The notes: generated by a model not told the origin, from the sequence alone. 64,000 nucleotides of DNA from an uncultured Planctomycetota bacterium (GCA_964385685.1 CAYLQD010000003.1:30361-94360); one strand, 5' to 3'; positions 7,718 to 56,592 are shown, counted from the stretch's first letter. A program made the numbers and translations.

Positions 7718-10700
7718 CTACTCCTTCTTCCGCCTGAGCAAGTTCACCGCCGCCGTCCGCCGGCGGGCCCCCGTCCTCCCCCCGCCGGCACGCTTCAGCA
7801 GCTCGTTGACCGCCTTCTTCGCGACGCTCGCCCGATTGTACTTGCCCGAGTGGACGCACAGCTCCGTGATCGCCTTGGCGCACGTGTAGGCGTCGCCCCA
7901 GGCCTTCGCCCGCGCGAGGGCCTTCTCGTAGTTCGACACGGCCGCGGCGTATTTCTTCGCCCGTTCGCGGACGCGGCCGCGGCCGAGATAGCCGCGCCAC
8001 GCATAGCCCTTGAGTTGGGGCGAGCGCGACGAACACAGCCTGTCGTAGTGCTTGTATGCGTCGGTCAGACTCCCGAGAGCGAGATGCTGGCCGGCCGCGA
8101 TGAGGCAGAACCGCGCCGGATGATCGCCGACCGCTCGGTACTCACGCATGGCTTTCTCGGCCTGGTTGGCGACGAAGAACCGGAGCAGGCGGCTCCGGCC
8201 GGCCGTACGGATGTAGGCGTTCAGGCGGTGTTGGTCCATGTCGGCCCCCGCCGGCGAGCCCGCGTCGCCCCGGTAGCGGAGAAAGTTCTCCGCCATCGCG
8301 ATCAACATGTAATCCCCGGTGTTCTGGAGCCAGGTGCCCTTCTTGTCACGGATGGCCGTCTGCGCGAAATCGCCCGCCGCGTTCGCCTCCGCCTGCGCCA
8401 TCTGATCGCGGGCCTGGGGCCAGTGGCGGAATACGCCGTTGTAGCGAGCGAGGCGCGTGTTGACGTTGCTGACCCACACGTGCGACTTGCGCCTGCGGCT
8501 CCATTCCTCGTATGCATAGCGCAGTTGAGCGGCCGGCGTCTTCTGCCGGCCGACCTTGACCTTGAAGATCGCGGCGTAGCGCTCGGCGCGGCGCGCGATC
8601 AACGGATCTGCGTGCTCCTGCAGCGCCTTGAGCCGGTTGCCCTTCCACGGCCGCACGCTGAAAACCTGGTCGTAGATGGTCGCCTCGGCGAGGTAGAGCC
8701 GGCCGAAACGTCTCAACTCGGCGATCTGCTCGCGCCGGTCGCTCGTTTGGGGCCCGATGGCCGCCGCCTCGTCCTCCGCCTCGGCCAGCCTGGCCAGAAT
8801 GCCAAGCCAGTCGGCCTTCGCGACCATCGGCGCGATCTGGACGATCCGCTGTTCGAGCAGTGCCTCCGCGAGCACCGCCTCGACCTCGCCGACCGAGTCC
8901 GCGTGCTCGACCACGTACCGGGTCGCGCCGTACTCACGCTCAAACGCGTCGTGGGCGGAGAGCGCCTTCTCCAGCACCTTCGGCTTCTCGGCCTGCCGCA
9001 CAATGTCCGCCAGCTGTCGCAGCGCCGAGGCCGCCTCGTCCTCGAGCACGCGATTCAGGAGGGCGTGCGCACGGACCAGCAGCGTCGCCCGCCCCGGTAC
9101 GTCCGAGCCCGGCCGCTCCTCGACCAGTTCAATCGCTCGGTGCGCCAACTCCTTCGCTTGCCCGTGCTTTTCCCCCGCCAGCAACTGCGCCAGATGATAC
9201 TGCCCGCGCGCATCGTCCTTCGCAATGATGGGAAACTTCTCGAACGCAAGAACATAGAAGGCCTGGGCGCCAAGCTCGCCCCACCGGAGGGAGCGCTTCC
9301 CCTCACGCGTCTCAACCCAGAGGCCGTCCGTCGACACGTCGAGGACGTTGCACCGCACCAGGGGCCCGGTACCCTTCACCTTCAGGTAGATCCCGGTCAC
9401 CGGGAGATGGGAGGGCAGGCCCGCGGTGAGACGCTTCACCAGCACGTACTCCGGCCCGAACCGCACCCGCAGCCCCTTCGCTTCGAGCCGCTCGGCCGCG
9501 AGCAGCTCCGGCTTCGCGATCAGCTTGTCGATCGCCGCATCGGCCTCGGCGTACTCCTTCCGGTCGATCAACCCCTGCACGTCCTTGAGCGCCGCCGCGA
9601 CGGGCCCGCGCTCCAGCGCCTTGCGCATCAGGTCATCGTATGGCACGAGCCGCTCGGCGACGTAGGGGTCCTTCGGGAAACGATCACGGATGGCCAGCAC
9701 CGCCTTGCCCACGGCCCAGCGGTCAGCGGAGACCGACGCCTCGAGCTGCTTGACGTCCGCGAACATGCGCAGGAACTCGTCCGCGGCGTCGACGGTCCCG
9801 CCCAGCTCGTCCAGCTTCGGCCTCAGGTGCTCCAGGTCCAGACGGTCGCGATCCGAGGCGAACAGGTCCCGCGCCTGCCCGGCATCGTTCTGGTCGAGCA
9901 GCGCCCAGACCTCATTGCGCAATCGCTCGTAATCGCGATCGGCCGCTTCGTGCACGACGGCGACCTTCTTGTCGATCAACTCCTGGAGCTCCGGCGTCAC
10001 CAGATGAGGGGGGACGCTCGACCGAATGATGGCGGCGGCCGTCTTGAACTGCCTCTTCGCCGTCGCCGACTCGGCCCGCTTCGCGAACGTGGCAAGAATG
10101 TGGTCGCTGTTGTCCCGGAGGATCTTCGCAAGCTCGGGCTCCTTCGCCGCCGCCTCGCCCGCCGTGGCCGTGTCGGGCGCATACGTCTTCAGCGCCTGGA
10201 GCCAGGCCGATGCCTCCGGCACGCGGATCGGCTCCGCGATCGCCAGATGCACCGCCGCGGCCACGTGTTCGCGGGCCCGCGACCGCCAATACGCGCGGAC
10301 CGTCTCGCCGTAGGGCGGGTCCTTCGGTGCCGACTTCGCCAGCTTCTCCAGCGCCTTCGCCTTGAGGATCCATTGCTGCGGGTTCTTCGCGGTGGTCTGA
10401 GTGAGACCGCGAAGCTCCTGCACCGCTTTCTTGAGCGCCTCTGCGTCTCGGGCGCGGGGCCCGTCGGGCGCGAGCGCCAGGCACTTGTTCAAGTTGGACA
10501 GGACCCCGTCGAAATGCTCCTGCGTCGGCTCCGTCCGTGCGAGTTGCGCGGCCCTCGTGTAGAGGATGGCTGCGTCGGCGCCTGCGCCCCCGCCCCCGCC
10601 CTCCTCGCGTCGGAAAAGACCGAGGGCGACGGCGACCACGGCCAACAGGGCGATCGCTCCGGCGACCCCCGCGAGCACGATCATCGGGCGGGACCGCGGC

Positions 10701-19754: not shown

Positions 19755-20492
19755 CTACGACCGCCGCTTCCTGCGAATCCCGAGGAGCGCGGCTGCCAGC
19801 AGCCCGAGGCCCGTGGGCTCGGGGACGACCTCTTCCCCGCCGGGCGTGGGGCGGCCGGGCGGCACGATCCGGCCGTACAGCGTCGAGGTCGTGTCCGTCT
19901 CCTCGAACAGGATGAACTCCTTCTCCAGGGTGATGCCGCCGTCGTTGCTGAAGCCGAGGAGTTCGAGCGTGTATTGCTCCCCGTCGTGCGGGAACGTCGT
20001 CGTCGAGAACACATCGACCGGCGTCAGCTTGTCGGCGCTGGCCACCGGATCGTCGGTGTTGACCGTGAGCAGGAACTCGAAATCGAACGTGAACGTCCGG
20101 TCCACGCCCGCCGGATTCGTGAAGTACACGTCGACGTTGACGGGCACCGACGTGACGCACGTGCCGACGACCGTTCGGCCGTTGTGGTAGAAAAGGTCGG
20201 CCACGGCGAACGGCTTGTTCTCGAGCGCCGAGAAGGCCAGCTCGCCCGTCATGGTGTACTCGTTCTGGCTCCCGCCCTCGGCAACAGCCGGCGCGCCCGA
20301 CAGGAGCGTGCTCGACATGTCCACGGGATAGGAACCGTTGTCCACCGTGTAGACGGGGCTGCCCGAAGGCGTGCCGAACCAGGCAAAGGTGTCGCCGCTG
20401 AAGACCGTGTCGGCACCGGCCTGCCCGACGAGGGCGAGCAAGAGCGTCGCGGCCACGAAGCTTCTCATCATCTTCATTGCCCTAACCTCCAT
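19755..20492 (-). CDS. PEP-CTERM protein (choice-of-anchor K-like domain)
   Basis: Signal peptide; C-terminal VVPEPTGLGLLAAALLGIRRKRRS; core TVNTDDPVASAD...YTLELLGFS...TLYGRI. Confidence 0.8.
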   Translation of the reverse strand: MEVRAMKMMRSFVAATLLLALVGQAGADTVFSGDTFAWFGTPSGSPVYTVDNGSYPVDMSSTLLSGAPAVAEGGSQNEYTMTGELAFSALENKPFAVADLFYHNGRTVVGTCVTSVPVNVDVYFTNPAGVDRTFTFDFEFLLTVNTDDPVASADKLTPVDVFSTTTFPHDGEQYTLELLGFSNDGGITLEKEFILFEETDTTSTLYGRIVPPGRPTPGGEEVVPEPTGLGLLAAALLGIRRKRRS

Positions 20493-20800
20493 GAGTGTTC
20501 TTGCCTCGGGACGACCCGAGGCGGTCCTTTACGTTGTCAGACTCAGTAACCTCCCGGGCGTCTGCCCGAGAAGACACTGTGCCATAAGGCAAATCGCGTG
20601 CCACTCGCGCGCATGTCTTCCCGCAGATCATGGGGGCGACCTGTTAACGCTCAGTTTCGTAAGGGATTATGCGGGCGAAAAAAGACCGGAATCGGCGAAA
20701 CCCGCTTTGTGTAGGTCCTGCTGAGTCGTGCTTAGCGGACTTTGGGGCCGGGCGCGTTGCGTTTCTTCGACTGGTTGCCGGGCGCTCGCGCGCCGCGCGG

Positions 20801-21904
20801 CTATGGGCGCAGCACGTACTCCGCTCCCCCCGACTTCCTGACGATGCACGCCCTGCCGCCGCAGGCGTCGATGGCGGCCGCCGCCTCGGCCTCGCGGCCG
20901 GGCGCGTAGGCGATCATCGTTCCGCCGCCCCCGCTGCCGTTGAGCTTGCCGCCGAGCGCGCCCGCCGCCCTGCAGCCCTCGAGCATGCTCTCGAGCTTCG
21001 GAGTCGAGATGCCTAAGCCGTTGCGGAGTTGCGCGTGATGCTCGTCGAGCATGGCCCCGAAGCGTTCGTGGTCCATCGGGCCGCTCGACAGCATCCGGCG
21101 TGCCTCGCGGCACAGGTCGCGGTTGACGACGTTCGCCCGTAGCTTCGCGGCCATCTCGGCGGGCAGGCCGCTGAGTTCGGCGAGGATTCGGTCCGCCGGC
21201 GTCTCGCGGAGCGAGAAACCCGGGATGCGGCTCGTCAGTTCTTCGATGCCGGCTTCGACCGCCCGCCGCGAGGCGAGCAGCGTGCCCTTCGTGTCCTTGT
21301 TCTCCAGGCTGTCGCCCAGCACAAAGCCGGGCAGGTCGCGGTCGATGGGGGCGACTTCGATCGGATCGACGCAGTCGATGGCGACCAAACCGCCGAGCGA
21401 GGTCGTGTAGTGGTCCATCGTGCCGCCCGGCTCGTTGAACTCGAGCACCTCGGCCCGGTGCGCGATCCGCGCGACCTCGGCGGCATCGGCGGCGGCGGGA
21501 TCGCCCGCGAGCGCGAGCAGCGTCTTCGCCCAGCCGACGCACATCGCCGACGAACTCGACACACCGGCATTCACCGGGATCGCGCTCGTGAAGACGAAGT
21601 CGTAGCCGCGGCCGAACTCGATGCCGCGCCGTTTCAGCACGTTCACGCACGCGGGCAGGTAGTCGCGCTGATGGCGGTACACGAGCGTCTCGGACGGCGC
21701 CAGCTCATCCGTCTCGCCCAGGTCGGGCATGTGGATGATGAACCTGCCGTCGTCTCGCGGCCACGCCCGGATCACGAAATGGAGGTCGATGGCCATCGCG
21801 ATGACGCTCAGGCCGAGGAAGTCCTGGTGCTCGCCGTGCAGGCAGATTCGGCCGGGCACGGAGGTGCGGATGAGTTCGTCCTTGCGGCTCGCCACGCTCT
21901 CCAT
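20801..21904 (-). CDS. GHMP kinase, galactokinase-like
   Basis: PGRICLHGEHQD, IPVNAGVSSSSA, GGTMDHY, GGKLNGSGGGGTMIA. Confidence 0.85.
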   Translation of the reverse strand: MESVASRKDELIRTSVPGRICLHGEHQDFLGLSVIAMAIDLHFVIRAWPRDDGRFIIHMPDLGETDELAPSETLVYRHQRDYLPACVNVLKRRGIEFGRGYDFVFTSAIPVNAGVSSSSAMCVGWAKTLLALAGDPAAADAAEVARIAHRAEVLEFNEPGGTMDHYTTSLGGLVAIDCVDPIEVAPIDRDLPGFVLGDSLENKDTKGTLLASRRAVEAGIEELTSRIPGFSLRETPADRILAELSGLPAEMAAKLRANVVNRDLCREARRMLSSGPMDHERFGAMLDEHHAQLRNGLGISTPKLESMLEGCRAAGALGGKLNGSGGGGTMIAYAPGREAEAAAAIDACGGRACIVRKSGGAEYVLRP

Positions 21905-23076
21905 CAGGATCGTCCGAAATGCGCCTGCACCTCATCGTCCAACTCCGGCACGTCCATCGGCTGGCCGCCGTTGCGGACCGATTCGGTCGCCGCGCAGGCG
22001 GCGGCGACGCTGTACCACGCGGCGACGGGCGACGTCGAGATCGCCCCGCCCTCGCGAACGTAGCGGATGAACTCGGCGACGATCCGAGGGTCCGATCCGC
22101 CGTGGCTCCCCTGCTCGCGCGGCACGAAATACTGCATGTCGCCGTACGGATTGTAGTACTGCTTCCGGTTCCACAGCTTGACGACGCTCTCGCCGGACAG
22201 GTCGCCGCAGTTCTCGATCCGCCCCTCGGTCCCGATGATGGTGTAGTTGCGCCAGGCGTCGGGCGTGTAGTGGCATTGCTGATACGACGCGAACACACCG
22301 TTGTCGAGGTGCATCAGCATCATGTTGATGTCCTCGACGTCGATGATGGGATGGAGCTGCTTCATCGAGAGCGGCGGCCATTCCTCGAGGCCGCAGGTCG
22401 CGTGGCCGTATTCGCCGGAATGGCGGTCGGTGATCTGGTCGTAGAGCGTCAGGCCGCCCATCGCGTTGACGCGGTCGGTGTAGCCGCCGCAGAGCCAGTG
22501 GAGAATGTCGATGTCGTGGACGCCCTTCTGGAGCAGCAGGCCGTTCGACTTCGTGCGGTCGGCGTGCCAGTCCTTGAAGTACGCCCCGCCGCCGTAGCTC
22601 ACGAAGTGCCGGCACCACCCGGCCTTGACCTCGCCGATCGAGCCGGCGTCGATCAGCTCCTTCATCTTCTTCATCACGGCGAAGTGGCGCATGTTGTGGC
22701 CGAGGTACAGCTTGCTCCCCGTCTCGAACGCCGCCCGGAGGATGTGGTCGCACCCGGCGATGGTGATCGCCATCGGCTTCTCGAGGTAGACGGCCTTGCC
22801 GGCGCGGAGCGCGGCGACGGCGTGCTCCTCGTGGCAGAAGTCCGGCGAGGCGACAAAGACGACGTCCACATCCGCGTCGGCGAGGAGGTCGGCGTAGTCG
22901 CTGGTCATGAATACGTCCGGCCCGTAGGCCTCCTTGAACTTGGCGAGCGCCTCGTCGCGCACGTCCGCCCCGGCCACGACCCGCGACCCGTTGTCGGGGT
23001 CGTGCGCGAGCCATGCCAGCCCGCCACGCCCGCCAACGCCGATCACGCCAATTCTCAGTTCGTCGCTGGTGCTCAT
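21904..23076 (-). CDS. Gfo/Idh/MocA family oxidoreductase
   Basis: IGVIGVGGRG, ASPDFCHEEHAVAALRAGKAVYLEKPMA, GHNMR, GLLLQKGVHDID. Confidence 0.9.
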   Translation of the reverse strand: MSTSDELRIGVIGVGGRGGLAWLAHDPDNGSRVVAGADVRDEALAKFKEAYGPDVFMTSDYADLLADADVDVVFVASPDFCHEEHAVAALRAGKAVYLEKPMAITIAGCDHILRAAFETGSKLYLGHNMRHFAVMKKMKELIDAGSIGEVKAGWCRHFVSYGGGAYFKDWHADRTKSNGLLLQKGVHDIDILHWLCGGYTDRVNAMGGLTLYDQITDRHSGEYGHATCGLEEWPPLSMKQLHPIIDVEDINMMLMHLDNGVFASYQQCHYTPDAWRNYTIIGTEGRIENCGDLSGESVVKLWNRKQYYNPYGDMQYFVPREQGSHGGSDPRIVAEFIRYVREGGAISTSPVAAWYSVAAACAATESVRNGGQPMDVPELDDEVQAHFGRS

Positions 23077-23250
23077 CCTGGACAACCCTCACTGTGGCCT
23101 GTCTGTCCCATCATCGTCAATGCAGGCGCCGGCAGCGGAAGCGCGGCGCCCGCCCACAAGGTGCGGCCCTTTATAGCCGCCCCTCCCGCGGATGTCAATC
23201 GCGCGAGCCCTGGGGCCCTGGCGAGTCGATACTCTGAACCCGGGGAATCT

Positions 23251-23388
23251 CCGTCCGGCGCCGGACGGGGACCGGTCAGGGGACATGTACCGGGACCCCC
23301 TTCCGCCTTCGACCGGACGGGGGCCGGACGGGGACATGTACCGGAAGCCCCTTCCGCCTTCGGCGGAAGGGGATCGGTACGTGTCCCC
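23251..23388. repeat. REP-like cluster of ggggacatgtacc direct and inverted repeats
   Basis: ggggacatgtaccgg...ccccttccgccttcg at 23279 and 23330, inverted copy ggtacgtgtcccc at 23376, and small hairpins (ccgtccggcgccggacgg). Confidence 0.6.
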
Positions 23389-23451
23389 ACAGACCGGCAC
23401 TTTGCGCGGCAGATGCGTGGGCAGGTGAGAACGCCGGGCCGCGCGCGGGCC

Positions 23452-23630
23452 AAATGCTCGATGACCAAATCCCAATGACCAACCAAGCCCCAAATCGCAA
23501 TTCCCGAATCACCAGACGCATGCGACTTGAAGCTGTTGGGAGTTGACGTGTTGGAGTGTGGTGCTTGCCCGCCGGAGGCGGGTGAATTCGGGGTTTGGTG
23601 CTTGTGTCTTGGGCATTGACGCGGCCCCGT
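23452..23630. repeat. Low-complexity periodic repeats in inverted arrangement
   Basis: caaatgctcgatgaccaaatcccaatgaccaaccaagccccaaatc on the left and tttggtgcttgtgtcttgggcattg on the right. Confidence 0.45.
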
Positions 23631-23886
23631 CGCATTGCCGTCAGGGCCGTAGTGCCTCGCCGAGCCAATGGCCGGCGGGACGCGCGGTCGCGTCAACTGC
23701 GCCGCTACTTGATGGAGACGACCTCGCAGCTTGTCAGCTCGAAGCGGAACCACGCCATCGGCGAGTTGCTTTTCCCGCCGGCGAGAGGGCCGGTGTAACG
23801 ATCGGAAACGGGAAGACGGGAGAGGGAGATTTCTTCGAGACGACAACTCCCACCCGGGCGCTGTGCTGTCCCCGAATTGGGGACGA

Positions 23887-24747
23887 TCACAAACCTTCTG
23901 TCCAAGTATTGGCCTCGGGCCACGGAGCGAGAACTCCGTCCTGCTGTTGCTCGAGGAGGGTGTTGTCTTGCACGGTGATCTCATCCGTACAACTGACCGA
24001 CCGAGCAACCTTGCCGTCGCGCACGAAGAACAGACGATGGACTCCTCGAACATTTGAACCGGCGACGGGCATCTGAAGTGTGTAGTACACGTAATACACG
24101 TCGTATCTGTTGCCCGCCGAGGAACGCCACCGCCCCGAACACGTCAACTGAGCGGTCATGCGTTTCTTCTTCTCGCTCATCCCTTCCAAGAGCAACCTGT
24201 CCGTGTCGGCCCGCGTCACGCGCCATCCGTAGGGAGGGAGGGCACACAAACGTACCTCGTTGACCAGCAGGGAATCTGATGCGTCCGGCGGGGTGTTGAA
24301 ATGGGGCCTGAACACGGTGACCAGGCCGCCCGCGTCAGAGCGGGGAAGGATGGCCCACAAGTATCCCGGCGAGGAATAGAGAACTCCTCGCTCCGGGTGC
24401 CAAGCGACCGCCAGACTCGTACTGGGGTTTACGTGACACTCAACGACACACCACGCTCCGAGGTCCGGCTCGTTGAACGAAGTTGCCGTGACGGCGTTCG
24501 CGGGAGCGGTCGTGCTGCTCGGGGCCAATACCTCCTCGGAAAGCCGCCCGTTGCGGAAGAGCTGCAGACGCAACGAGCCATCTTTCGACATGCTCGCCCT
24601 GAAGTCTCGTGTCTCTTGCCCCGTGGATCTGGCGCGGCCGCATCCAGCAAGACAAGCTGCGAGCAGCGCGACCGGAATGAGGCACATTCTGAGCGTGGCA
24701 TTGACCCCCGTGGCGCGTGATGTACCGGAGTTCGCGGGCGTGCGCAA
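23887..24747 (-). CDS. Hypothetical lipoprotein
   Basis: Lipobox ALLAACLAGC; AT-richer codon usage; the start may instead be the ATG at 24687. Confidence 0.65.
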   Translation of the reverse strand: MRTPANSGTSRATGVNATLRMCLIPVALLAACLAGCGRARSTGQETRDFRASMSKDGSLRLQLFRNGRLSEEVLAPSSTTAPANAVTATSFNEPDLGAWCVVECHVNPSTSLAVAWHPERGVLYSSPGYLWAILPRSDAGGLVTVFRPHFNTPPDASDSLLVNEVRLCALPPYGWRVTRADTDRLLLEGMSEKKKRMTAQLTCSGRWRSSAGNRYDVYYVYYTLQMPVAGSNVRGVHRLFFVRDGKVARSVSCTDEITVQDNTLLEQQQDGVLAPWPEANTWTEGL

Positions 24748-24864
24748 GGGATCTTGTCCTGAACTGTGGCGAGCTTGATTGTGACTCAGCCACCCATATG
24801 CATTATATCTCTCGCTCCACGATCATTGGGCCTTTAGTCCGAGAACCGCCTAGCCCTTGGGCAT

Positions 24865-24922
24865 AGCCATCTCCCGCTCAGGAGGATTTGCCCAGAAAAA
24901 GTGGGGCGTTGTCTTCCCGCCC
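24865..24922 (-). repeat. Conserved ~58-bp cassette-leader element, copy E (degenerate)
   Basis: + strand agccatctcccgctcaggaggatttgcccagaaaaagtggggcgttgtcttcccgccc aligns with copies A-D. Confidence 0.6.
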
Positions 24923-25034
24923 GCAAGAAAGGGCCAACGGCAGTTCACCACGAAGACACCAAGGCGCGAAGAGAAGCGGAAACGGGAGAACGGGAGAAGG
25001 AGATTCCCGCACGGCACCGCTGCTCCCGCCACTG

Positions 25035-26174
25035 TTACTCATTCTCCCCTGTGGCGTCCTCGGTCGTGACTCCCCGACGCTTCGTCGTCTGGCGTTTCCG
25101 CGTGATCTGCTCGATCATCTTCAGCTCCGCTTCAGCCCTCGTCGTATCTCCGGTTGACAGATAAAGACGAACTAAGTCCGACCGAGCCGCCAGGTTTGTC
25201 GGTCGCAGTTCGATTTCGCGCTTCAGACACAAGGTGGCTCGCCCAGAATCGCCCTTGCGCACGTAGCAGTCCGCCAGGAATTGGTTGGCGGATTCCACGT
25301 CGGGCTTGATAGACAAGGCCTCCTCAAAGGCCTTGATGGCGTTGTCAAGGTCGCTCTGCTCCGTTCCTCGATAAATGCACTTCCACGCCCGGAACTCCAG
25401 TGCGAGCGGCCCGAGGGTCTCCGGTGCGAGCAGTTCATCAGTCTTCAATCGAACTCGCGTATCTGTCTCAAGGCTCCACTTCCTTGTCTCTCCACCGAAG
25501 GAATGCACGAAGGTGCCGCTCATAGCCAGGTGGCAACTCTCAAAGCGTCCCTTCTCCGGACTGAGCGCCGCGGACCCGCTAAGAGCCAAGTCTGCCGACG
25601 TAGGGTCTTCGGAGACCCTCTGCCCGCCTTGGATTGAGAGGATCGCCTGCGTTTCGCCGTCCTGGGACCGAATCTCAGTCAGGGTGGCCGTGGGCGTTTG
25701 GGTTCCTTCAACTCCAGGCGTCATTCTGATACCGAGATCCCACCTATCACCCTCGCCGACGGGGCCCCGTGGGAGAGGAAACAAGGCGACAAACAGGTCT
25801 CTTGTTTGCCATGGCGTGCCCTTGAGCCAGGTACCGTCTTCGGAACCTATGACAGTCACGCCCGCAGCCAAGGGTGGAAAAACCCCGAGCGCGATGGTTT
25901 CGTCCGTGTCCTGCGTCTTGGACTCCGCGAACGTGAACTTGCAGAGCGCCGTGCCGTCTTCGGTGCAAGTGAGCGTGATCAACGAGTCAATCTGGTATTC
26001 CCTTCGCCCATTTTCGTCAACGATGGTGGCCGTTTGATGCACATCGTAGACGAGACGACGCCCTTTATCGAATGACCATCGAAGGGAATGTTTGCTCTTC
26101 CCACACGCAGGGCCGCCGAGGGCTGCCAAGCAAGCCGCGCACCACAGCAGTAGCCAACGATGCAAGCGCGCCAT
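25035..26174 (-). CDS. Hypothetical lipoprotein with C-terminal TPR repeats
   Basis: GGAGG RBS; MARLHRWLLLWCAACLAALGGPAC; beta-rich middle; TPR-like AIKAFEEALSIKPD...LADCYVRKGD...LVRLYLSTGD. Confidence 0.7.
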   Translation of the reverse strand: MARLHRWLLLWCAACLAALGGPACGKSKHSLRWSFDKGRRLVYDVHQTATIVDENGRREYQIDSLITLTCTEDGTALCKFTFAESKTQDTDETIALGVFPPLAAGVTVIGSEDGTWLKGTPWQTRDLFVALFPLPRGPVGEGDRWDLGIRMTPGVEGTQTPTATLTEIRSQDGETQAILSIQGGQRVSEDPTSADLALSGSAALSPEKGRFESCHLAMSGTFVHSFGGETRKWSLETDTRVRLKTDELLAPETLGPLALEFRAWKCIYRGTEQSDLDNAIKAFEEALSIKPDVESANQFLADCYVRKGDSGRATLCLKREIELRPTNLAARSDLVRLYLSTGDTTRAEAELKMIEQITRKRQTTKRRGVTTEDATGENE

Positions 26175-26247
26175 AATCCGGTTCCTCCAAGTGTCTGTCA
26201 CTGAGCAGGCCTTCTCAACAGGCGCCTCGACGACCCCGCCCCTACAT

Positions 26248-26305
26248 AACTATATCCCGCTCGGGGGCATTTGCGTAGGAAAAGTGGGGCGGTGTCTTTC
26301 CCGCC
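26248..26305 (-). repeat. Conserved ~58-bp cassette-leader element, copy D
   Basis: + strand aactatatcccgctcgggggcatttgcgtaggaaaagtggggcggtgtctttcccgcc. Confidence 0.85.
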
Positions 26306-26314
26306 TGCGTAGCC

Positions 26315-27304
26315 CTATTCTTTCGCGCCGTGCTTGCGCAGCATGTCAGCGCACTCCCGTCGCCGCAGTGCCCCGATCGCGATGTTCAATGCTATGATGT
26401 CTGGGTCCTTTTGTGCAACGACCTGATCGACCGTCAGGTTGCCCAACCCTTCTGCTGCACACGTGCGCCGCAGCTCATCTTCGTATCGAGCCACTTCGTG
26501 AAGGGTCACGCCCAGCGGGGTCAACGACAATTGATCGGCGGCGTTGATGTTCGCTCCTTTGGCTAATAGCAGCACCGCCACATCCTCATGCCCTGTGCTT
26601 GCTGCCGCATGTAGCGGAGTCCTTCCCGCTTTGTCAACGGCATTGACTACTGCGCCATTGGACAGAAGCAGTTCTGCAGTATCCTTTTCCCCCTCGCTCG
26701 CCGCCACGTGTAGCGGAGTTCTCCCGACTGCGTCCATGGCATTGATTACTGCGCCGTTGGCCAAGAGCAACGCCACGACACCCTCTTTGGTGGTCCAAGA
26801 GCCCGCTGCCATATGTAGCGGAGCCTTTCCCGCCTTGTCCACAGCATTGACTGCTGCGCCGTTGGTCAAGAGCAATGTAACGATTCTTGTCTCTCGAGCA
26901 TAGTACAGCGGGGTTTCGCCCGCGTCATTCCTGGCATCGACAAGCGCCCCTTTCTCGATGAGGAATTCCGCCACAGCGACGTACCCCCACCGGACTGCGA
27001 TGTGCAAGGGTGTCCAACCATTTTCATTCCTCGCGTTGACGTCGGCTCCCTGCGCCAAAGATTTCTTCGCCCCATCGAGGTCATGCCCATCTACGGACAC
27101 GAGCAGCAGGCGCGAGGCGTTGCTCAGTGGGCGGCGGTGTTCCTGTGGAATCGGTGCGCCCCCCGGGAAGGACGACAAGAGGACGGCGAGCGCCACCAAA
27201 GCACAAGCAACGAGAACACAGAGGCAAACTCTCCTCCTGCGGGAGGTGCGTCCGGGGCTCTGTGGCCCCCCACTCCTTTGTACTTCGTTACCGGCTGGCA
27301 GCAT
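26315..27304 (-). CDS. Ankyrin-repeat protein with N-terminal TM helix
   Basis: Several GxTPLHxAA...LL..GA.VNA.D repeats; TM VCLCVLVACALVALAVLL. Confidence 0.9.
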   Translation of the reverse strand: MLPAGNEVQRSGGPQSPGRTSRRRRVCLCVLVACALVALAVLLSSFPGGAPIPQEHRRPLSNASRLLLVSVDGHDLDGAKKSLAQGADVNARNENGWTPLHIAVRWGYVAVAEFLIEKGALVDARNDAGETPLYYARETRIVTLLLTNGAAVNAVDKAGKAPLHMAAGSWTTKEGVVALLLANGAVINAMDAVGRTPLHVAASEGEKDTAELLLSNGAVVNAVDKAGRTPLHAAASTGHEDVAVLLLAKGANINAADQLSLTPLGVTLHEVARYEDELRRTCAAEGLGNLTVDQVVAQKDPDIIALNIAIGALRRRECADMLRKHGAKE

Positions 27305-27344
27305 GACTTTCCCCCTCTCCGCTTGCCGCCCAACCCGCCCACAC

Positions 27345-27403
27345 AACTATATCCCGCTCGCGGCCATTTGCGTAGAAAAAGCGGGGCGGTGTTTTGCCCG
27401 GCC
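27345..27403 (-). repeat. Conserved ~58-bp cassette-leader element, copy C
   Basis: + strand aactatatcccgctcgcggccatttgcgtagaaaaagcggggcggtgttttgcccggcc. Confidence 0.85.
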
Positions 27404-27474
27404 GCCCTGGCGGCTCATTCCGACTTCGCTGCCGCCTCGCCGCCCGTCCCTGACTTCCCCACTCAACATCGAAC

Positions 27475-28038
27475 TCACGGGTCGATCTTCTTGTCAACAA
27501 CGGCAGCCAACTTCTTGTCAAGAAAGGCCGCGAGCTTGTCTGCCTTCGCGAGGTACGGGATCATCGCCTTAACCTCCTCGCGGTTGAGCGAGACGGCGAA
27601 CTCGCGCCCGGCGACCACGGAGAGCATCTTGTCCTTTATGAGGACCCGGAAGCCGGTCTTTGGGTCGTGTCGGAATATCACGGCCTTCCTCCTCCCAAGG
27701 TCCACGGCCTCCTCGACCCGCTTCGGGCTGTTCTGCATTGCCTTGTGGTGCTTGTCAACGGAGGCCAGAGCCTTCGCAAGCTCTTGCGCCTCTTTGGGCC
27801 GGAAGGATGCAAAAGCGACGGAATCGGAAACGGAATCGGGAGTTGGACTGAGTCCGATTCTCGTGCTACGGTTGGATGACTTGTTGACAGCGAGCGTGAC
27901 CGTGCCGTGCGTGACCACCACCCATCTGAACATGTAGTGCTCGATGGCGAACTCCTTGCCGTTCTCCGCAGCCGCGGCAGCGGTGGCAGCCGAAAGAACC
28001 GCCGCACACACAAACGCTCTTGCCGCCTTGTTCATCAT
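27475..28038 (-). CDS. Hypothetical secreted protein
   Basis: GGAGGG RBS; signal peptide MMNKAARAFVCAAVLSAATAAAAA; no family recognised. Confidence 0.65.
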   Translation of the reverse strand: MMNKAARAFVCAAVLSAATAAAAAENGKEFAIEHYMFRWVVVTHGTVTLAVNKSSNRSTRIGLSPTPDSVSDSVAFASFRPKEAQELAKALASVDKHHKAMQNSPKRVEEAVDLGRRKAVIFRHDPKTGFRVLIKDKMLSVVAGREFAVSLNREEVKAMIPYLAKADKLAAFLDKKLAAVVDKKIDP

Positions 28039-28131
28039 GAGTCTTCCCTCCTGTGTTCGCGGCCCCCGTCGCCCAAGTCTCCTCGGTGCCCCGGCCCGCG
28101 CCTGTTTCTCCCGTGCGACTATCGCCCACCT

Positions 28132-28190
28132 AACTATAACCCGCTCCCGGCCATTTGCGTAGGAAAAGTGGGGCGGCGGTTTCTCCGGCC
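28132..28190 (-). repeat. Conserved ~58-bp cassette-leader element, copy B
   Basis: + strand aactataacccgctcccggccatttgcgtaggaaaagtggggcggcggtttctccggcc; first 45 bp identical to copy A. Confidence 0.85.
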
Positions 28191-28196
28191 CGCGTC

Positions 28197-28376
28197 CTAC
28201 CGCCACGGGATGAGTGTGTCAGGCAGCGCCTTCTGAAGGTCGGCAACGCCCTCGTCCGTAATCTGCTCACAGCGCCAGAGCCCGAGCGTCCGCAGCCCTG
28301 TCAAGCCCTTCAGGTGCGCCAGACCGGCGTCGGTAATCCGTGTGCCGGTAAGCTCCAGCGTGCGGAGACGGGGCAG
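28197..28376 (-). pseudogene. C-terminal fragment of a leucine-rich-repeat protein
   Basis: Not in the ORF track. Reads LPRLRTLELTGTRITDAGLAHLKGLTGLRTLGLWRCEQITDEGVADLQKALPDTLIPWR*; no start codon of its own. Confidence 0.7.
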
Positions 28377-28940
28377 TCAGTTCAGCCTCGCCGACCTCGC
28401 AATGCTTAGGAATTCTCGGCCGAGCGCCTCCAGGTCGGGAGCAGACTCCAAGCCAAGCACTTCCCAGTATATGTTGAATGCCTTTTCTTCATCGCACAGC
28501 ACGCGTGAAAACACGACCCGGCCTGCACTCGGGTGCGTAGCGATGTAGCCTGCTACAACCAAATTCCCTTCCACGCATAACGGCAGGGAGGTCACCTTGG
28601 CCTCACCCTTGGTGATCTCTTCCTGCGTCTTGACCTGAGCCGCGAGAATCGTGGCCACGGCCTCCTTGCGTTCTTCAAGGGAACATTCCTTCTTCAGAAG
28701 AAAACCAGAAACTATTATCTGCCGGTCCTTTGTTTGTGTCATGCCGCAATAGACAGTGTTCTTTGCTGGGAGTTCCTGTGGGACCCAATGTCCCGGCACT
28801 GTCAACTCAAACTGGCCGGTGTTGATTCGCAATGCTTGTTTCGTGTGCACAAACGGAGAAGTGGAATCGTCTGCACCGCAGCCGCCCGCGACAAGGGCGA
28901 GCAGCACGACCGCCACGACGATAGTCTTGGACGTCTTCAC
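28377..28940 (-). CDS. Hypothetical lipoprotein
   Basis: MKTSKTIVVAVVLLALVAGGC lipobox; GTG start with GGGAG RBS. Confidence 0.7.
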   Translation of the reverse strand: MKTSKTIVVAVVLLALVAGGCGADDSTSPFVHTKQALRINTGQFELTVPGHWVPQELPAKNTVYCGMTQTKDRQIIVSGFLLKKECSLEERKEAVATILAAQVKTQEEITKGEAKVTSLPLCVEGNLVVAGYIATHPSAGRVVFSRVLCDEEKAFNIYWEVLGLESAPDLEALGREFLSIARSARLN

Positions 28941-28979
28941 CGGTTCACTCCCGCGACGGTCCCGCAGGCAGCACCTTGC

Positions 28980-29579
28980 TCAGTATATGAGGAGCTTGCC
29001 AGCATGTTCATCCTCGCCCAGGTCAACGGGTATGTATCCTTGAAGTCCCACCTGTGTCGCTCTCTCCAGCAAAGGGTATTCCGCCAGCTTCCCGTAGAGC
29101 AGGAGCCACGCCGTTGAGACGAACACATCCGGGAGCAACTCGTACACACCCAGTGCCTTCTGATAGCGGGCGGGCCAGGCCTTCTTCTTCTCCGCGACGA
29201 AATCCCAGATCAGGTCCCACAGTGCCCAGAGCAACCGCATTTGCTCGTTATATTCCCGATGGTCCCAAAACAGCTTGCGTAGAAGGCCGACGTCCTTCAT
29301 GGCCAGCTCCTGGCATGCACCAAGGGCCTTGTGAATCCTCTTGTCGAGCGCCAGGCCCGGGGTGCTGTCAATCTGATATGCGACAAGCCGGTCCTCGGCA
29401 TCTTGCCAAGTGATCGGCAGGAGATCAGGATCGTCTGGATAAGGTCCGCCGCATTTGTCGAGAAGGGGCGCCTCCTCCAGTTCGTGCCACGCCACCGTCA
29501 CCTCGCGGCACCTTTCTTCACCAAAGACAGCACATGCTCGGTGAAGCCAGTCAGACAAGTCCACCGCAGGATTCCCCAA
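28980..29579 (-). CDS. Hypothetical (probably cytoplasmic) protein
   Basis: Open frame with protein-like composition (…LWALWDLIWDFVAE…GYIPVDLGED…); start uncertain (TTG 29579 or the next in-frame GTG). Confidence 0.55.
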   Translation of the reverse strand: MGNPAVDLSDWLHRACAVFGEERCREVTVAWHELEEAPLLDKCGGPYPDDPDLLPITWQDAEDRLVAYQIDSTPGLALDKRIHKALGACQELAMKDVGLLRKLFWDHREYNEQMRLLWALWDLIWDFVAEKKKAWPARYQKALGVYELLPDVFVSTAWLLLYGKLAEYPLLERATQVGLQGYIPVDLGEDEHAGKLLIY

Positions 29580-29646
29580 TTCGCCAAGGGTTTCCGAGGG
29601 CTCCAGGGACCCAGTACTTAACTCCGGACAACCGCCCCACCCACCC

Positions 29647-29704
29647 AACTATAACCCGCTCCCGGCCATTTGCGTAGGAAAAGTGGGGCGGTGTTTTTCC
29701 CGCC
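29647..29704 (-). repeat. Conserved ~58-bp cassette-leader element, copy A
   Basis: + strand aactataacccgctcccggccatttgcgtaggaaaagtggggcggtgtttttcccgcc, 80 bp downstream of the tRNA-Lys 3' end. Confidence 0.85.
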
Positions 29705-29783
29705 GGGAGCATGGCATGAACGCAACGGCACGCGGCGGGCTGACGGCTCCATGAACGGCTTGGCTTGCCCGCCGGGGGTTCGA

Positions 29784-29859
29784 TGGTGAGGGCAGAAGGA
29801 CTCGAACCTTCGACCTACGGCTTAAAAGGCCGTTGCTCTGCCAACTGAGCTATGCCCCC
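29784..29859 (-). tRNA. tRNA-Lys (UUU)
   Basis: GGGGGCATAGCTCAGTTGGCAGAGCAACGGCCTTTTAAGCCGTAGGTCGAAGGTTCGAGTCCTTCTGCCCTCACCA: 76 nt, anticodon TTT, encoded CCA. Confidence 0.97.
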
Positions 29860-29867
29860 GAACGAGT

Positions 29868-30043
29868 GAGTTCCGAGTTCCGAGTTCCGGGTTCCGAGTT
29901 CAGGGTTCCGGGTTCCGAGTTCAGGGTTCCGGGTTCCCGGTTCCGAGTTCAGGGTTCTGTGTTCCGCGTTGGGCAACCTGGGCGGGTTCCGGATGCGGGC
30001 CGCGTTGTTGACCCGGAACTCGCAACTCGGAACCCGGAACCCG
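29868..30043. repeat. Heptamer-period tandem repeats with an inverted block
   Basis: About 14 units of gagttcc/gggttcc/gagttca (29868 to about 29965) facing ggaactcgcaactcggaacccggaacccg (30015-30043). Confidence 0.85.
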
Positions 30044-30045
30044 TT

Positions 30046-30606
30046 TCACACCTGCATCAGTTCGTCGGACTTGGCTTCGTGAAGCTCGTCCACCTTCTTA
30101 GTATACTCGTCGGTGAGTTCCTGTGCATCCTTTTTGAAGCGCTCGAGGTCGTCTTCGGTCATCTCGCCGCTCTTCTTCTCGGCCTCGGCGGCCCGGATCG
30201 CGTCGCGCCGCTCGTTGCGGATGGCGATCTTCGCCTCCTCCGACATCTGCTTCGTCTGCCCGACGATCTGCCTGCGCCGCTCTTCGCTCAGCGGCGGCAC
30301 GGCCAGCCGGACGAGCTTGCCGTCGCTCGAGGGCGTGATGCCGATGTCGGACTTCAGGATCGCCTTCTCGATCTCCTGGACCGACGCGGGGTCGAACGGG
30401 CGGATGACGAGCAGCCGCGCCTCCGGCGCGCCGATCGCCGCGATCTGCTTGAGCGGCGTCTCCGTGCCGTAGTAGTCGACTTTGATGTTCTCGACGAGCC
30501 CGGGCGTCGCCCGCCCGCTGCGCACCTTCGTGTACTCGTCGTGCAGGAAGTGGAGCGACTTCTCCATCCGCTCCTCGGTTTCGAGCAAAATGTCGTCGTA
30601 TGGCAT
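30046..30606 (-). CDS. frr: Ribosome recycling factor
   Basis: VRSGRATPGLVENIKVDYYG, PPLSEERR, IAIRNERRDA. Confidence 0.97.
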   Translation of the reverse strand: MPYDDILLETEERMEKSLHFLHDEYTKVRSGRATPGLVENIKVDYYGTETPLKQIAAIGAPEARLLVIRPFDPASVQEIEKAILKSDIGITPSSDGKLVRLAVPPLSEERRRQIVGQTKQMSEEAKIAIRNERRDAIRAAEAEKKSGEMTEDDLERFKKDAQELTDEYTKKVDELHEAKSDELMQV

Positions 30607-30624
30607 TGTGTCCTCCCGGCAAAA

Positions 30625-31350
30625 CTAGCTGACGCGAGTGCCGACCTTGACGCCCAGGACGGCCTTCCGGATGTTACCACGTTTGCGCAGGTTGAAAACC
30701 AGAATGGGCAGCTCGCCCTCGATCGCCATGGTCAGCGCCGTCATGTCCATCACGCGCAGGTTGCGGTCCAGCGCCTCGCGGGCCTTGAGCGTCTTGAAGA
30801 GCTTGGCCTTCGGGTGCGTCATCGGGTCGGCGTCGTAGACGCCGTCGACCTTCGTCGCCTTGAGGAGCGCGCAGGCTTTGATCTCGCGCGCCCGCAGGAC
30901 GGCGGCGGTATCGGTCGAGAAGAACGGGTTGCCGGTTCCCGCGGCGAGGATGCAGACCTTCTTGTGCTCGAGGTGTGCGATGCAGCGGCGGCGGATATAG
31001 GGCTCGGCGACGTCGGCCATTCTGATCGCCGTCTGCACGCGGACCTCGAGCCCGAGCCGCTCGAGCGCGTCCTGGAGCGCGAGCGCGTTGATGACCGTGG
31101 CCAGCATGCCCATGTGGTCGCAGACGGCCCGCTGCAGCCCGGTCGCCGCGAGTTCGTGCCCGCGGCAGATGTTGCCGCCGCCGATGACGACGGCCAGCTC
31201 GACGCCCGTCTCGGCCGCGAGCTTGATCTCACTCGCGATCGACTTGACGGCGTCGGGCTCGATCCCCTGCCCGCCGTCGGCACAGAGGCTCTCGCCGCTG
31301 AGCTTCAGGACGACGCGCTTGAACGCGGGCTTGGGCCGCCGCTTGGCCAC
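30625..31350 (-). CDS. pyrH: UMP kinase
   Basis: RVVLKLSGESL, VIGGGNI, DHMGMLATVINAL, AGTGNPFFSTDTAA, KATKVDGVY. Confidence 0.97.
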   Translation of the reverse strand: MAKRRPKPAFKRVVLKLSGESLCADGGQGIEPDAVKSIASEIKLAAETGVELAVVIGGGNICRGHELAATGLQRAVCDHMGMLATVINALALQDALERLGLEVRVQTAIRMADVAEPYIRRRCIAHLEHKKVCILAAGTGNPFFSTDTAAVLRAREIKACALLKATKVDGVYDADPMTHPKAKLFKTLKAREALDRNLRVMDMTALTMAIEGELPILVFNLRKRGNIRKAVLGVKVGTRVS

Positions 31351-33334: not shown

Positions 33335-33616
33335 GTTTTGCGCTTCCTCGCCGGTATTCTGAGTGCGGGGCGGCCCCGAGGCGAGGGACGCCGGGGCCCG
33401 CTAGTGTTCGCCCTGGTTGCCGGGGGTTTCGAGGACGGGACCGTAGGGCGCCCCTATTGACGGGCCGCGACAAAACCGGTCTGCCAGTCCCTGGCGTGAC
33501 TGGGGTGAAGCGTTGTCATGCCGGGTCATTTGCTTTGCGCAGGGTGTTCGCCTGCACGTGCAGGCGAACACCCTGCGCAAGAGAACTCGACCGCCAAAGG
33601 CCCCGGCCGCTCGCCC

Positions 33617-46976: not shown

Positions 46977-46991
46977 GGCAGGGATGCACCA

Positions 46992-52810: not shown

Positions 52811-52815
52811 CGAGT

Positions 52816-54105: not shown

Positions 54106-54146
54106 TCGTGGGCAAATCCGCGCGACCGGACGACCGCGCCGGCGGC

Positions 54147-55438: not shown

Positions 55439-55444
55439 AGCGCC

Positions 55445-56290: not shown

Positions 56291-56373
56291 CACGGTGCCG
56301 CCGAAGTCGAATCCCACGCGTTTCTCCAGGTCACGACCCGAATCCCAATCGCGATCAGCCGCGGCGATTGGGG

Positions 56374-56586: not shown

Positions 56587-56592
56587 AAATCG

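Follow-up and report, generated by a model that had tools for sequence, protein, structure and literature searches.

Co-oriented arrays of gene units joined by a ~75-bp promoter-like element in uncultured Planctomycetota

Phage morons are autonomous promoter-gene-terminator units inserted between phage genes, and their cargo is often made up of envelope or lipoprotein genes; we know of no single conserved flanking element shared by them, nor of moron arrays outside a prophage. The genes headed by the 'upstream homology box' of Borrelia belong to related gene families and are borne by the cp32 prophage plasmids, each replicon having a single such locus. The Xer-dependent dif modules (pdif) of Acinetobacter plasmids comprise genes set between short conserved sites, which are imperfect palindromes of 28 bp and alternate in orientation; the modules are moved by a host-encoded recombinase, which is why an integrase is not found nearby. 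MITEs are marked by terminal inverted repeats and by target duplications, and their copies are scattered over the genome in either orientation. Promoters are seldom present in integron cassettes, clusters of which may lack an integrase in their vicinity, and insertion into secondary sites has precedents (PMC4889954). Recombination in and around the Borrelia box is reported in the titles of Marconi et al. 1996 and Sung et al. 2000, as cited in PMC10016077.

The DNA analyzed (the window) is a stretch of 64,000 nucleotides from an uncultured Planctomycetota bacterium. It hosts, beside a tRNA-Lys gene, an island of low GC content (0.60 vs. 0.68 in the flanks) in which an element of ~75 bp is repeated in a single orientation, in four tight copies and a degenerate one. 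From the tRNA onward, the region includes:

29784..29859, minus strand: tRNA-Lys(UUU) (ARAGORN; Rfam, 75.9 bits), upstream border of the island
29633..29707, minus strand: element copy A, full (model R1, 83.4 bits, E = 1e-24), heading the array 77 nt downstream of tRNA-Lys
28980..29501, minus strand: cargo gene G0, 173 aa, no signal peptide, no family, start codon uncertain
28377..28940, minus strand: cargo gene G1, 187-aa lipoprotein (lipobox LVAGGC), in the same unit as G0, the element being absent between the two
28198..28376, minus strand: C-terminal remnant of a leucine-rich-repeat (LRR) gene (from translation), in frame and abutting the G1 stop codon
28119..28192, minus strand: element copy D, full (R1, 80.1 bits), abutting the stop codon of the LRR remnant, upstream of G2
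27475..28038, minus strand: cargo gene G2, 187-aa secreted protein, a unit common to arrays L012 (76% aa) and L024 (79% aa)
27330..27406, minus strand: element copy C, full (R1, 86.4 bits), between G2 and the ankyrin gene
26315..27304, minus strand: cargo gene G3, 329-aa membrane-anchored ankyrin-repeat protein (Pfam Ank_2, 7e-53)
26234..26309, minus strand: element copy B, full (R1, 78.7 bits), in the gap between the ankyrin and lipoprotein-TPR genes
25035..26174, minus strand: cargo gene G4, 379-aa lipoprotein with C-terminal TPR repeats (Pfam TPR_19, 1.8e-12)
24977..25005, minus strand: 29-nt 3'UTR motif (family D11, alignment A1), 90% identical to 23803-23831, found past the G4 and G5 stops
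24862..24925, minus strand: element copy E, full-length, degenerate (R1, 37.7 bits, E = 2e-10), with CTACGC changed to CTGGGC and TATAGT to GATGGC
23887..24687, minus strand: cargo gene G5, 266-aa lipoprotein, closing the array
23760..23782, minus strand: copy F, left-part fragment (GC-dyad/A-tract, CGGCGGGAAAAGCAACTCGCC; alignment A1), past the last gene

The five direct copies described in an earlier sequence-only reading, with spacings of 1383, 1097, 787 and 1515 bp, were all recovered by repeat finding (family D1; 24853-24922, 26236-26305, 27333-27402, 28120-28189 and 29635-29704); copy F, reduced to the left fragment, is a sixth one. Four copies are 77-86% identical to the reference copy, and the degenerate 24865 copy, mutated in the -10 and CTACGC blocks, is 71% identical. 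The sequence model scored the four at E = 1e-23 to 1e-25 and the degenerate copy at 2e-10, with no further match in the 64-kb window. Core motifs of the element number four in the window, a count attained by 0 of 100 shuffles (chance expectation, 0.1-0.3), and no such motif lies outside the island. Other details of that reading hold as well: the copies at 29647 and 28132 have 45 identical bp in common, the former has its 10-bp outer inverted repeat at the coordinates given, and the copies are all intergenic, upstream of minus-strand genes for lipoproteins, an ankyrin protein, a lipoprotein with TPR repeats and a secreted protein.

Cargo proteins show no kinship to one another, but 12 of the 15 intact ones have a lipobox, a signal peptide or TM segments. 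The first unit of the window array holds two genes plus the truncated LRR gene, a remnant which is evidence of rearrangement within a unit. The tRNA-Lys(UUU) gene does adjoin the array (29784-29859, minus strand), and the frr-tRNA-Lys pair is kept in relatives; the tRNA was the only match of an Rfam scan of 22000-31000. The notion of a general tRNA hotspot did not survive, as a tRNA lies beside one only of the three arrays seen whole. Nor does the island border carry a repeat of the 3' end of the tRNA: the longest match to the tRNA region in 20000-29750 is a 13-mer outside the tRNA. A tRNA-targeted genomic island or integrative element was thus discarded, the tRNA 3' repeat being missing, as is an integrase among the called genes, and two other arrays having no tRNA.

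Arrays of the same element were found at four further loci (L012, L014, L024 and L015), and hence reside at five or more loci in a small clade of uncultured Planctomycetota. All 20 copies, in the window and in the other arrays, are co-oriented with the genes and lie inside arrays. Two cargo genes occur in three arrays each, with different neighbours each time. Segment 6091-7138 of L012, carrying a DUF4190-like unit, matches 6854-7869 of L014 at 83%, and the window G2 gene plus copy C match 5447-6175 of L012 at 85%, and in either case the neighbours to the left and right are unrelated; the G2 unit is found in a third context in L024, the DUF4190-like unit in L015. Homology of the exchanged units breaks at the element, at apparent breakpoints which fall in different places within it and do not coincide with GCGG. 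Exchange is documented by two shared units at five loci, and gene content and order between copies vary among related arrays, as expected of the exchangeable gene units that had been proposed. The array was identical in all population samples and no variants of it were seen there, so that ongoing exchange is without evidence. In the sole related MAG with all contigs scanned, exact matches to the element are confined to one array; this differs from the pattern of a motif dispersed singly before many genes.

Half-copies are found at four array ends, a right-only one starting from position 52 of the element (L14_0), and left-only ones reaching positions 54/55 (L14_4, L12_5) or ~50 (L024); all break within positions 50-55, the GCGG stretch. 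Left and right parts of adjacent copies diverge to different extents. L14_1 and L14_2 are identical at 54 of 54 left positions and differ at 8 of 27 right ones, L12_2 and L12_3 differ at 1 of 50 and 10 of 27, respectively. Left parts are homogenised within arrays, which points to recombination among copies. The arrays have a GC content of 0.60, and the GC3 of cargo genes is 0.65-0.77 (0.84 in one gene) vs. 0.82-0.93 in the host; tetranucleotide correlations are 0.88-0.93 between arrays vs. 0.76-0.81 to their own flanks in two of them. The similar composition of cargo across arrays points to a common pool.

Along the direction of transcription, the element is made up by a GC-rich dyad with an A-tract, a T-run plus CTACGCAAAT, a 6-nt variable spacer, GAGCGGGWTATAGT, and the leader TKRTGGGCGG. 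The dyad/A-tract is poorly conserved and dispensable, the leader loosely conserved, whereas the T-run+CTACGCAAAT and GAGCGGGWTATAGT blocks are nearly invariant at fixed spacing (identities of 0.96 and 0.97, vs. 0.79 in the spacer and 0.55-0.58 in the flanks). In a diverged lineage, the cargo of which is 42% identical, the corresponding blocks TTTTCTACGCAAA and GGATACTGT are kept at identical spacing, and the hairpin is absent. TATAGT, invariant in 11 full copies and replaced by TACTGT in the variant, conforms to the -10 hexamer TAnnnT and precedes the start codon by 34-147 nt in all cargo genes, most of which have a good SD. The GAGCGGGWTATAGT block spans -20 to -7, as an extended -10 (TAnnGT), and T-run+CTACGCAAAT about -41 to -27 (CTACGCAAAT itself -36 to -27), the place of a -35 or activator site. 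Each copy is most likely a promoter, and from this geometry we infer that it would drive transcription of the following gene. No hexamer close to TTGACA was found; at 17-nt spacing the sequence is TACGCA, with 3 of 6 matches, and for this reason a sigma-70 consensus scan calls no copy. The host clearly uses a canonical TTGACA-17-TATAAA elsewhere (window positions about 23177-23205). Given the poor -35 hexamer, transcription from the element probably needs a dedicated activator or an alternative sigma factor. Left-only terminal copies retain the supposed -35 block despite having no downstream gene, a fact which a pure promoter role fails to explain.

The element had also been read as a terminator plus promoter, headed by a GC-rich hairpin. 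The promoter role of the right half fits the geometry, but the terminator half is weak. A terminator scan makes no call on the element, the candidate stem is made of 3-5 pairs around loops of 8-12 nt and shows no covariation, and in the L015/L024 variant its 3' arm is replaced by 29 unrelated nt; an intrinsic terminator was rejected on these grounds. RNA and ssDNA folds of seven copies, on both strands, gave z-scores of -1.5 to +2.4, no copy beating shuffles; the consensus fold (alifold) has 3 pairs (-1.8 kcal/mol) and no compensatory changes, and dyads in the element are not more numerous than in shuffles. A conserved hairpin, missing as it is from the diverged variant, is therefore contradicted. 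The analogy to attC falls with it, since there is no stable or conserved hairpin, GTTRRRY is found in 5 of 13 copies, and half-copies break at positions 50-55, 9-14 nt upstream of GTT rather than at GTT. Neither were inverted arms of Xer/dif type seen, dyads with arms of 6 nt or more being absent from core positions 28-66. A MITE was discarded because the outer inverted repeat is found in some copies only, and all 20 copies lie in arrays, co-oriented with the genes.

The arrays resemble integrons in layout, but have no hairpin site or nearby integrase. As in integrons and CALINs, arrays are co-oriented, genes are small and mostly orphan, a conserved repeat lies between them, cargo composition is unlike that of the host, units are exchanged between arrays, a nearby integrase may be absent, and hybrid or partial sites occur at array borders. 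Unlike theirs, the repeat has no imperfect palindrome, R''/R' boxes or conserved fold; it functionally lies 5' of the gene, attC being a 3' recombination hairpin; each unit has a promoter-like signal, whereas integrons rely on a single Pc promoter; the junction falls elsewhere than at G|TT, and no IntI was seen. Recombinases, Phage_integrase included, are missing among the 41 called genes of the window, where the lack of an integrase had been noted, and among the called genes of L012 (17 kb) and L014 (12.8 kb); a complete integron, with intI adjacent to the array and with attI and Pc, was rejected accordingly. An integron-like system is thus supported as to cassette behaviour, but not as to an attC-type hairpin, a GTT site, generality of the tRNA association or a nearby integrase. 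Single genes with their own expression signals and envelope or lipoprotein cargo recall phage morons, and one homologue of the G2 family opens a prophage at tRNA-Gly, where it adjoins xis/int; yet no phage genes were found in or beside the arrays, and scans of viral contigs were negative. The Borrelia box likewise heads varied surface-lipoprotein genes with a common conserved upstream sequence, but those genes are related and not in tandem, while the cargo here is unrelated and arrayed. Modules between short conserved sites, with no integrase nearby, recall pdif, but the core of the element lacks dyad symmetry and copies are all direct repeats. Intergenic repeats and MITEs which carry promoters, such as the Correia elements of Neisseria, similarly provide neighbours with promoter-like signals; they differ in that the copies described here are confined to arrays, always co-oriented with genes.

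We lean towards the view that the ~75-bp element is the junction of self-contained single-gene expression units, and that each cassette would carry its own promoter within this junction. Arrays would be assembled and reshuffled by recombination at the element. The 75-bp repeats would either undergo homologous exchange of RecA type, with gene conversion, or be cut in the GCGG core, between the two blocks, by a recombinase whose gene lies elsewhere. That the element is a site-specific recombination site, functionally analogous to attC, at which a recombinase from elsewhere in the genome would cross strands over within GCGG (positions 52-55), is a tentative alternative. Circular [gene + element] cassettes would enter resident copies or secondary sites, leaving half-sites at array ends, and the promoter-like blocks would be recombinase-binding arms, or have a double role. 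The four independent array-end junctions lie within about 5 nt of each other, a clustering which random truncation of a 75-nt element would rarely give; left and right parts of adjacent copies have separate histories, units are swapped between arrays, the 7-nt direct repeat GCCGTTC flanks the L014 array on both sides, and integrons offer precedents for clusters without a nearby integrase and for secondary-site integration (PMC4889954). Set against this are the lack of a recombinase among called genes of the 64-kb window, 17 kb of L012 and 12.8 kb of L014, of the dyad symmetry normal for tyrosine-recombinase core sites, of a conserved single-strand fold and of array variants in population samples, and the homology boundaries of the two shared units, which fall off GCGG.

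It is improbable that the element is a regulon promoter/operator only, kept by selection ahead of co-regulated envelope genes and unconnected with gene movement, the arrays having formed by ordinary tandem duplication followed by divergence. The two blocks kept at fixed spacing even in the diverged lineage, the constant placement relative to start codons and the coherent cargo (12 of 15 intact proteins with lipobox, signal peptide or TM segments) would all fit, but duplication and divergence fail to explain arrays of mutually unrelated proteins. Moreover, non-functional positions are conserved too (spacer about 0.8, flanks 0.55-0.58), one unit has different neighbours in three arrays, half-copies mark array ends, composition is foreign to the host, and copies are confined to arrays. 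Non-autonomous transposon-like units, set head to tail, with GGWTATAGTT... as left end and ...CTACGCAAATGGCCCCGAGCG as right end, the full element being a right-end/left-end junction, are very unlikely. Arrays beginning right-only and finishing left-only at the same boundary, a possible 7-nt target duplication around the L014 array and subterminal inverted segments (GTGGGCGG / CCGCCCCAC) in several copies are in their favour; yet a transposase is absent, the inverted segments are not conserved (copy D and L14_1 miss them), the window and L012 arrays begin with full copies, genes move without their left parts (13 of 50 positions differ between L12_4 and L14_3), and no solitary units were seen. 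We give hardly any credit to a true CALIN with divergent attC sites: co-oriented, small, mostly orphan genes of atypical composition with a conserved repeat between, and GTTRRRY-like heptamers in some copies, are outweighed by the absence of an imperfect palindrome, of R''/R' pairing and of intI, by fold z-scores of -1.5 to +2.4 with only 3 conserved pairs and no covariation, by GTTRRRY in 5 of 13 copies with junctions 9-14 nt upstream of GTT, and by units bearing their own promoter-like signal, promoters being rare in integron cassettes (PMC4889954).

If a dedicated activator or sigma factor acts on the junction element, the cargo would form one regulon of envelope proteins. Rather doubtful, but of wider import, is that the arrays represent a gene-capture system not described before, in which a trans-acting recombinase would insert single-gene cassettes with their own promoters into a non-palindromic site of ~75 bp, and excise them from it, with crossover in the GCGG core between the two conserved blocks. 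Such a system would recruit envelope-protein genes into chromosomal arrays from a pool common to different species, and integron-like logic would have evolved independently of IntI/attC.

The cargo genes downstream of tRNA-Lys in the window, all on the minus strand, are interspersed with a promoter-like element of about 75 bp; a cargo gene and its copy of the element make up a unit.

Array of the window, in order of transcription
29784-29859: tRNA-Lys(UUU)
29635-29704: element copy A
G0, minus strand: cytoplasmic-looking protein, without family
G1, minus strand: lipoprotein
28198-28376, minus strand: LRR remnant, 59 codons from the C-terminal end of a leucine-rich-repeat gene, in frame right after the G1 stop
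28120-28189: element copy D
G2, minus strand: secreted protein
27333-27402: element copy C
G3, minus strand: membrane-anchored ankyrin protein
26236-26305: element copy B
G4, minus strand: lipoprotein with TPR repeats
24853-24922: element copy E
G5, minus strand: lipoprotein
23760-23782: fragment F, a short left-end piece of the element (CGGCGGGAAAAGCAACTCGCC), after the last gene

The five direct copies (~70-80 bp) were recovered by repeat finding in the window, with spacings of 1383, 1097, 787 and 1515 bp, as described in the sequence-only reading; the 45 bp identical between two copies and the 10-bp outer inverted repeat of copy A noted there are also correct. The repeat is real. Its core strings CATTTGCGTAG and AACTATAWCCCGCTC occur four times each, vs. 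0.3 and 0.1 times expected by chance, and are missing from the rest of the 64 kb. R1, a sequence-only model of the element built on seven copies, assigns 79-86 bits to the four good window copies and 38 bits (E = 2e-10) to copy E (24862-24925 in this search), which is degenerate precisely within the conserved blocks; no match beyond these five was found in the whole window. The element is confined to arrays and co-oriented with their genes. An Rfam scan of the 22-31 kb interval (E <= 1) detected the tRNA only and no match to the element. Exact and relaxed core patterns gave 0 matches in viral_contigs, and 0 in metagenome_contigs, a collection evidently devoid of the JGI sample holding the twin contig of the window; these negative results therefore carry little weight. 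A full-text literature search for the motif returned unrelated primers only.

The island has a lower GC content than its flanks (0.60 vs. 0.68), GC3 being 0.65-0.77 in island genes vs. about 0.9 in host genes, and is flanked by housekeeping genes (pheT, dnaN, gyrB, uvrD, rpsB-tsf-pyrH-frr). The LRR remnant is a rearrangement scar located within a cassette, not at the element. No recombinase or transposase was found among the 41 genes called in the window, and no repeat of the tRNA 3' end (att site) at the far island border. Relatives at 73-77% identity keep the order rpsB-tsf-pyrH-frr-tRNA-Lys, carry different genes after the tRNA in each case, and lack the element; they are too distant for an empty site to be visible through Frr homologues. 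Every contig that encodes an identical Frr, G2 or G3 is at least 99.96% identical to the window, and none shows an array variant. The array being identical in every population sample, exchange is not demonstrably ongoing.

Other repeats reside nearby. Between frr and tRNA-Lys, 14.4 tandem copies of the 7-mer GTTCCGG and an inverted partner 40 nt off (29870-29970 and 30011-30043) take up the gap and could fold into a long hairpin; since the gap measures 186 nt in the window vs. 7-47 nt in relatives, the repeat is a lineage-specific insertion. A 51-bp tandem repeat (23261-23377, 2.3 copies, 85% matches) lies between the island end and the promoter of a GFO/IDH/MocA oxidoreductase gene. A perfect 46-bp palindrome (33535-33580, 23-nt arms, no spacer) separates rpsB from an ArsR-type regulator gene, and may serve as operator or bidirectional terminator.

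A scan of one genome per GTDB species detected a single additional locus, L001, in an uncultured Planctomycetales MAG. Its contig was taken in full (L014), and further loci were reached through cargo homologues.

Related loci, with elements in array order
L014, 12.8 kb, with a selenium-utilisation operon on one side and pho genes on the other: first a right-half-only copy, then three full ones, and last a left-half-only copy
L012, 32-kb contig from the JGI sample that also holds the twin contig of the window, the array being flanked by a flavodoxin-like gene and 6PGD: first a diverged full copy, then four good full ones, and last a left-half-only copy
L024, from another sample: full copy, G2-like gene, left-only copy of variant type
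L015-L018, from a more distant lineage: a homologue (42% identical) of one cargo gene, with the variant element on either side

All four L015-L018 contigs break at the downstream element copy; assemblies tend to break at repeats. The window aside, no tRNA is found at the arrays seen whole, and the tRNA hotspot proposed from the window does not extend to them; no recombinase gene is found at any array seen whole. A retron-type reverse transcriptase is encoded 1.1 kb upstream of the L012 array (L012 1890-2789; PADLOC RT_XIII, 1e-79; NCBIfam retron St85 family, 5e-60, below cutoff), its GC3 (0.81) being below that of its host; it looks like a retron-type defence enzyme with no obvious link to the array. 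The L012 flanks agree with the genome of the window in GC, GC3 and tetranucleotide signature, which is consistent with both arrays residing in one genome, and no proof of it; relatives score almost as high in tetranucleotide signature. Just beyond the L014 array end, an ankyrin-repeat gene 45% identical to G3 (L014 9076-10149, minus strand) runs opposite to the array and has no element.

The 15 intact cargo proteins of the three long arrays include two homologous pairs only, G2/L12_c (76% amino acid identity) and L12_d/L14_c (81%), the prefixes L12 and L14 denoting genes or copies of L012 and L014. At the DNA level, G2 plus copy C match L012 5447-6175 (85%), and L012 6091-7138 matches L014 6854-7869 (83%); in both cases the neighbours of the matched unit are unrelated genes. 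When L024 and L015 are included, the G2 unit and the DUF4190-like unit each occur in three contexts. Depending on the array, G2 is preceded by the LRR remnant, L12_b or another gene, and followed by an ankyrin gene, the DUF4190-like gene or DNA outside the array. Upstream of the DUF4190-like gene lies either the homologue of G2, or a DUF1559-like gene, or a long stretch of non-coding sequence. Fine alignment places the limits of homology of the shared units in or beside the element, with no one fixed point: the G2 match extends from ~35 nt before the ATG to ~15 nt beyond the TATAGTT of the downstream copy, and the DUF4190 match begins at the T-run of the upstream copy and ends ~10 codons before the stop. 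The element marks the boundaries of unit exchange between at least five loci. In one sample, the sequence upstream of the DUF4190-like gene is wholly different (L018 1-300 vs. L015 430-740), the breakpoint being the ribosome-binding site; the difference is due to a structural variant, or else to a chimera at low coverage.

The two sides of the element, separated at consensus positions ~50-55, differ in history. Copies of one array resemble each other more in their left parts than cognate units do. L14_1 and L14_2 share all 54 of 54 left-part positions and differ at 8 of 27 in the right part; L12_2 and L12_3 differ at 1 of 50 and 10 of 27 positions, respectively. The likeness within arrays indicates either gene conversion or repeated exchange between copies. 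Half-copies break in the same stretch: relative to the consensus, the right-only copy at the L014 array start begins to match at position 52, the left-only copies that close the L014 and L012 arrays match through 54/55, and the L024 left-only copy loses likeness to its own variant type at ~50. Four independent array borders thus fall within ~5 nt, around G52-C53-G54-G55, exactly between the two most conserved blocks. The L014 array has the heptamer GCCGTTC at its two outer borders (4829-4835 and 8766-8772); this repeat may be a target-site duplication, or a chance occurrence (post-hoc chance estimate 1-2%).

Seven copies, folded both as RNA in the coding direction and as single-stranded DNA of the opposite strand, are not more stable than dinucleotide shuffles (z -1.5 to +2.4). 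The consensus structure of 15 left parts (-1.8 kcal/mol) contains three G-C pairs, which are invariant, and compensatory changes are absent. Dyad symmetry of the consensus is not above that of its shuffles, and none is found in the conserved core, which led to rejection of a dif-like structure. GTTRRRY is found in 5 of 13 copies; this count, shuffle-level folding and the lack of compensatory change led to rejection of an attC-like structure. No copy was called in a terminator scan, and in a diverged variant 29 unrelated nucleotides take the place of the 3' arm of the GC dyad; on these results, again with the lack of compensatory change, a terminator-like structure was rejected. Both the attC analogy and the terminator half of the sequence-only reading are left without support.

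Identity to the consensus, calculated over 11 full copies, is 0.88 in the GC dyad and A-tract, 0.96 in the T-run+CTACGCAAAT, 0.79 in the 6-nt spacer, 0.97 in GAGCGGGWTATAGT, 0.77 in the leader after GAGCGGGWTATAGT, and 0.55-0.58 in the flanks; the element is conserved in two blocks. If TATAGT is set at -12 to -7, the first block spans about -41 to -27. TATAGT precedes every cargo start codon by 34-147 nt, the SD being usually clear, and in L015, of a diverged lineage, TTTTCTACGCAAA and GGATACTGT alone are left, with spacing unchanged. Taken together, the fixed distance between two blocks, the TAnnGT hexamer and the unchanging position ahead of genes make up a promoter signature, and the element would function as a promoter. 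Its -35 hexamer is poor (TACGCA), while the host elsewhere uses canonical TTGACA-17-TATAAA, and CTACGCAAAT is therefore likely recognized by a dedicated activator or an alternative sigma factor. An ECF sigma factor and a zf-HC2 anti-sigma factor are encoded 17 kb from the island (46383-48722), the former being, by proximity only, a candidate regulator of the array; past the pair lies a pilus cluster of Tad/type II secretion-like type (50690-63790), in which three proteins have FHA domains. A 29-nt motif (90% identity) recurs in the 3'UTRs of the unrelated G4 and G5 genes (24977-25005 and 23803-23831), and GGAATGAGCC is found upstream of three element copies, which belong to three arrays; in some units, the conserved left part may thus reach further.

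Twelve of the 15 intact cargo proteins carry a lipobox, a signal peptide or TM segments. Pfam, NCBIfam and PADLOC assign no family to most cargo, and PADLOC and NCBIfam none to any cargo tested. The G2 family is rare (71 representative clusters among 1.8 billion); one distant member sits on an uninformative 518-bp contig. In a Pirellulales MAG, a 40%-identical G2 homologue is the first gene of a prophage (L026 9892-12036), in the order tRNA-Gly, G2 homologue, excisionase (xis), tyrosine integrase (int), and the element is absent. This position suggests that small secreted G2-like proteins also travel as phage morons. A GC content of 0.60 is common to all arrays, as is the tetranucleotide signature (r = 0.88-0.93 between arrays); correlation of the window and L012 arrays with their own flanks is much lower (0.76-0.81).

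We infer that the arrays were built by recombination at the element. Exchange by homologous recombination would fit the homogenised left parts and the scattered unit breakpoints, as well as the failure to find a recombinase or dyad symmetry. Coincidence of four half-site junctions, the different histories of left and right parts, and the possible 7-nt flanking repeat argue for exchange by site-specific recombination. That the arrays represent an independent gene-capture system with its own enzyme we hold to be rather unlikely.

Integrons, whose defining features are a hairpin site and a dedicated integrase, are, to our knowledge, the only well-understood bacterial system stockpiling single-gene cassettes in arrays. 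Chromosomal integron arrays and CALIN elements (PMC4889954) are the closest in architecture, sharing exchangeable one-gene units, one conserved repeat between them, foreign composition and orphan cargo, but the junction described here is promoter-like, does not fold, and has no adjoining recombinase. As every defining feature of attC sites and integrons that could be tested fails, the arrays are not members of the integron/CALIN family. They also recall phage morons and the upstream-homology-box genes of Borrelia (titles cited in PMC10016077), neither of which is known to form arrays in which one junction element links unrelated genes.

If a specific enzyme mobilises the units, gene capture would have been invented independently, and captured genes would arrive expression-ready and possibly co-regulated. 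If homologous recombination alone is at work, the shared 75-bp promoter would be a portable stretch of homology shuffling surface-protein genes among loci and species. The conserved motif and the working sequence model can now be used to find further arrays. Under either mechanism, the arrays point to an envelope-protein repertoire that is variable in the poorly studied Planctomycetota.
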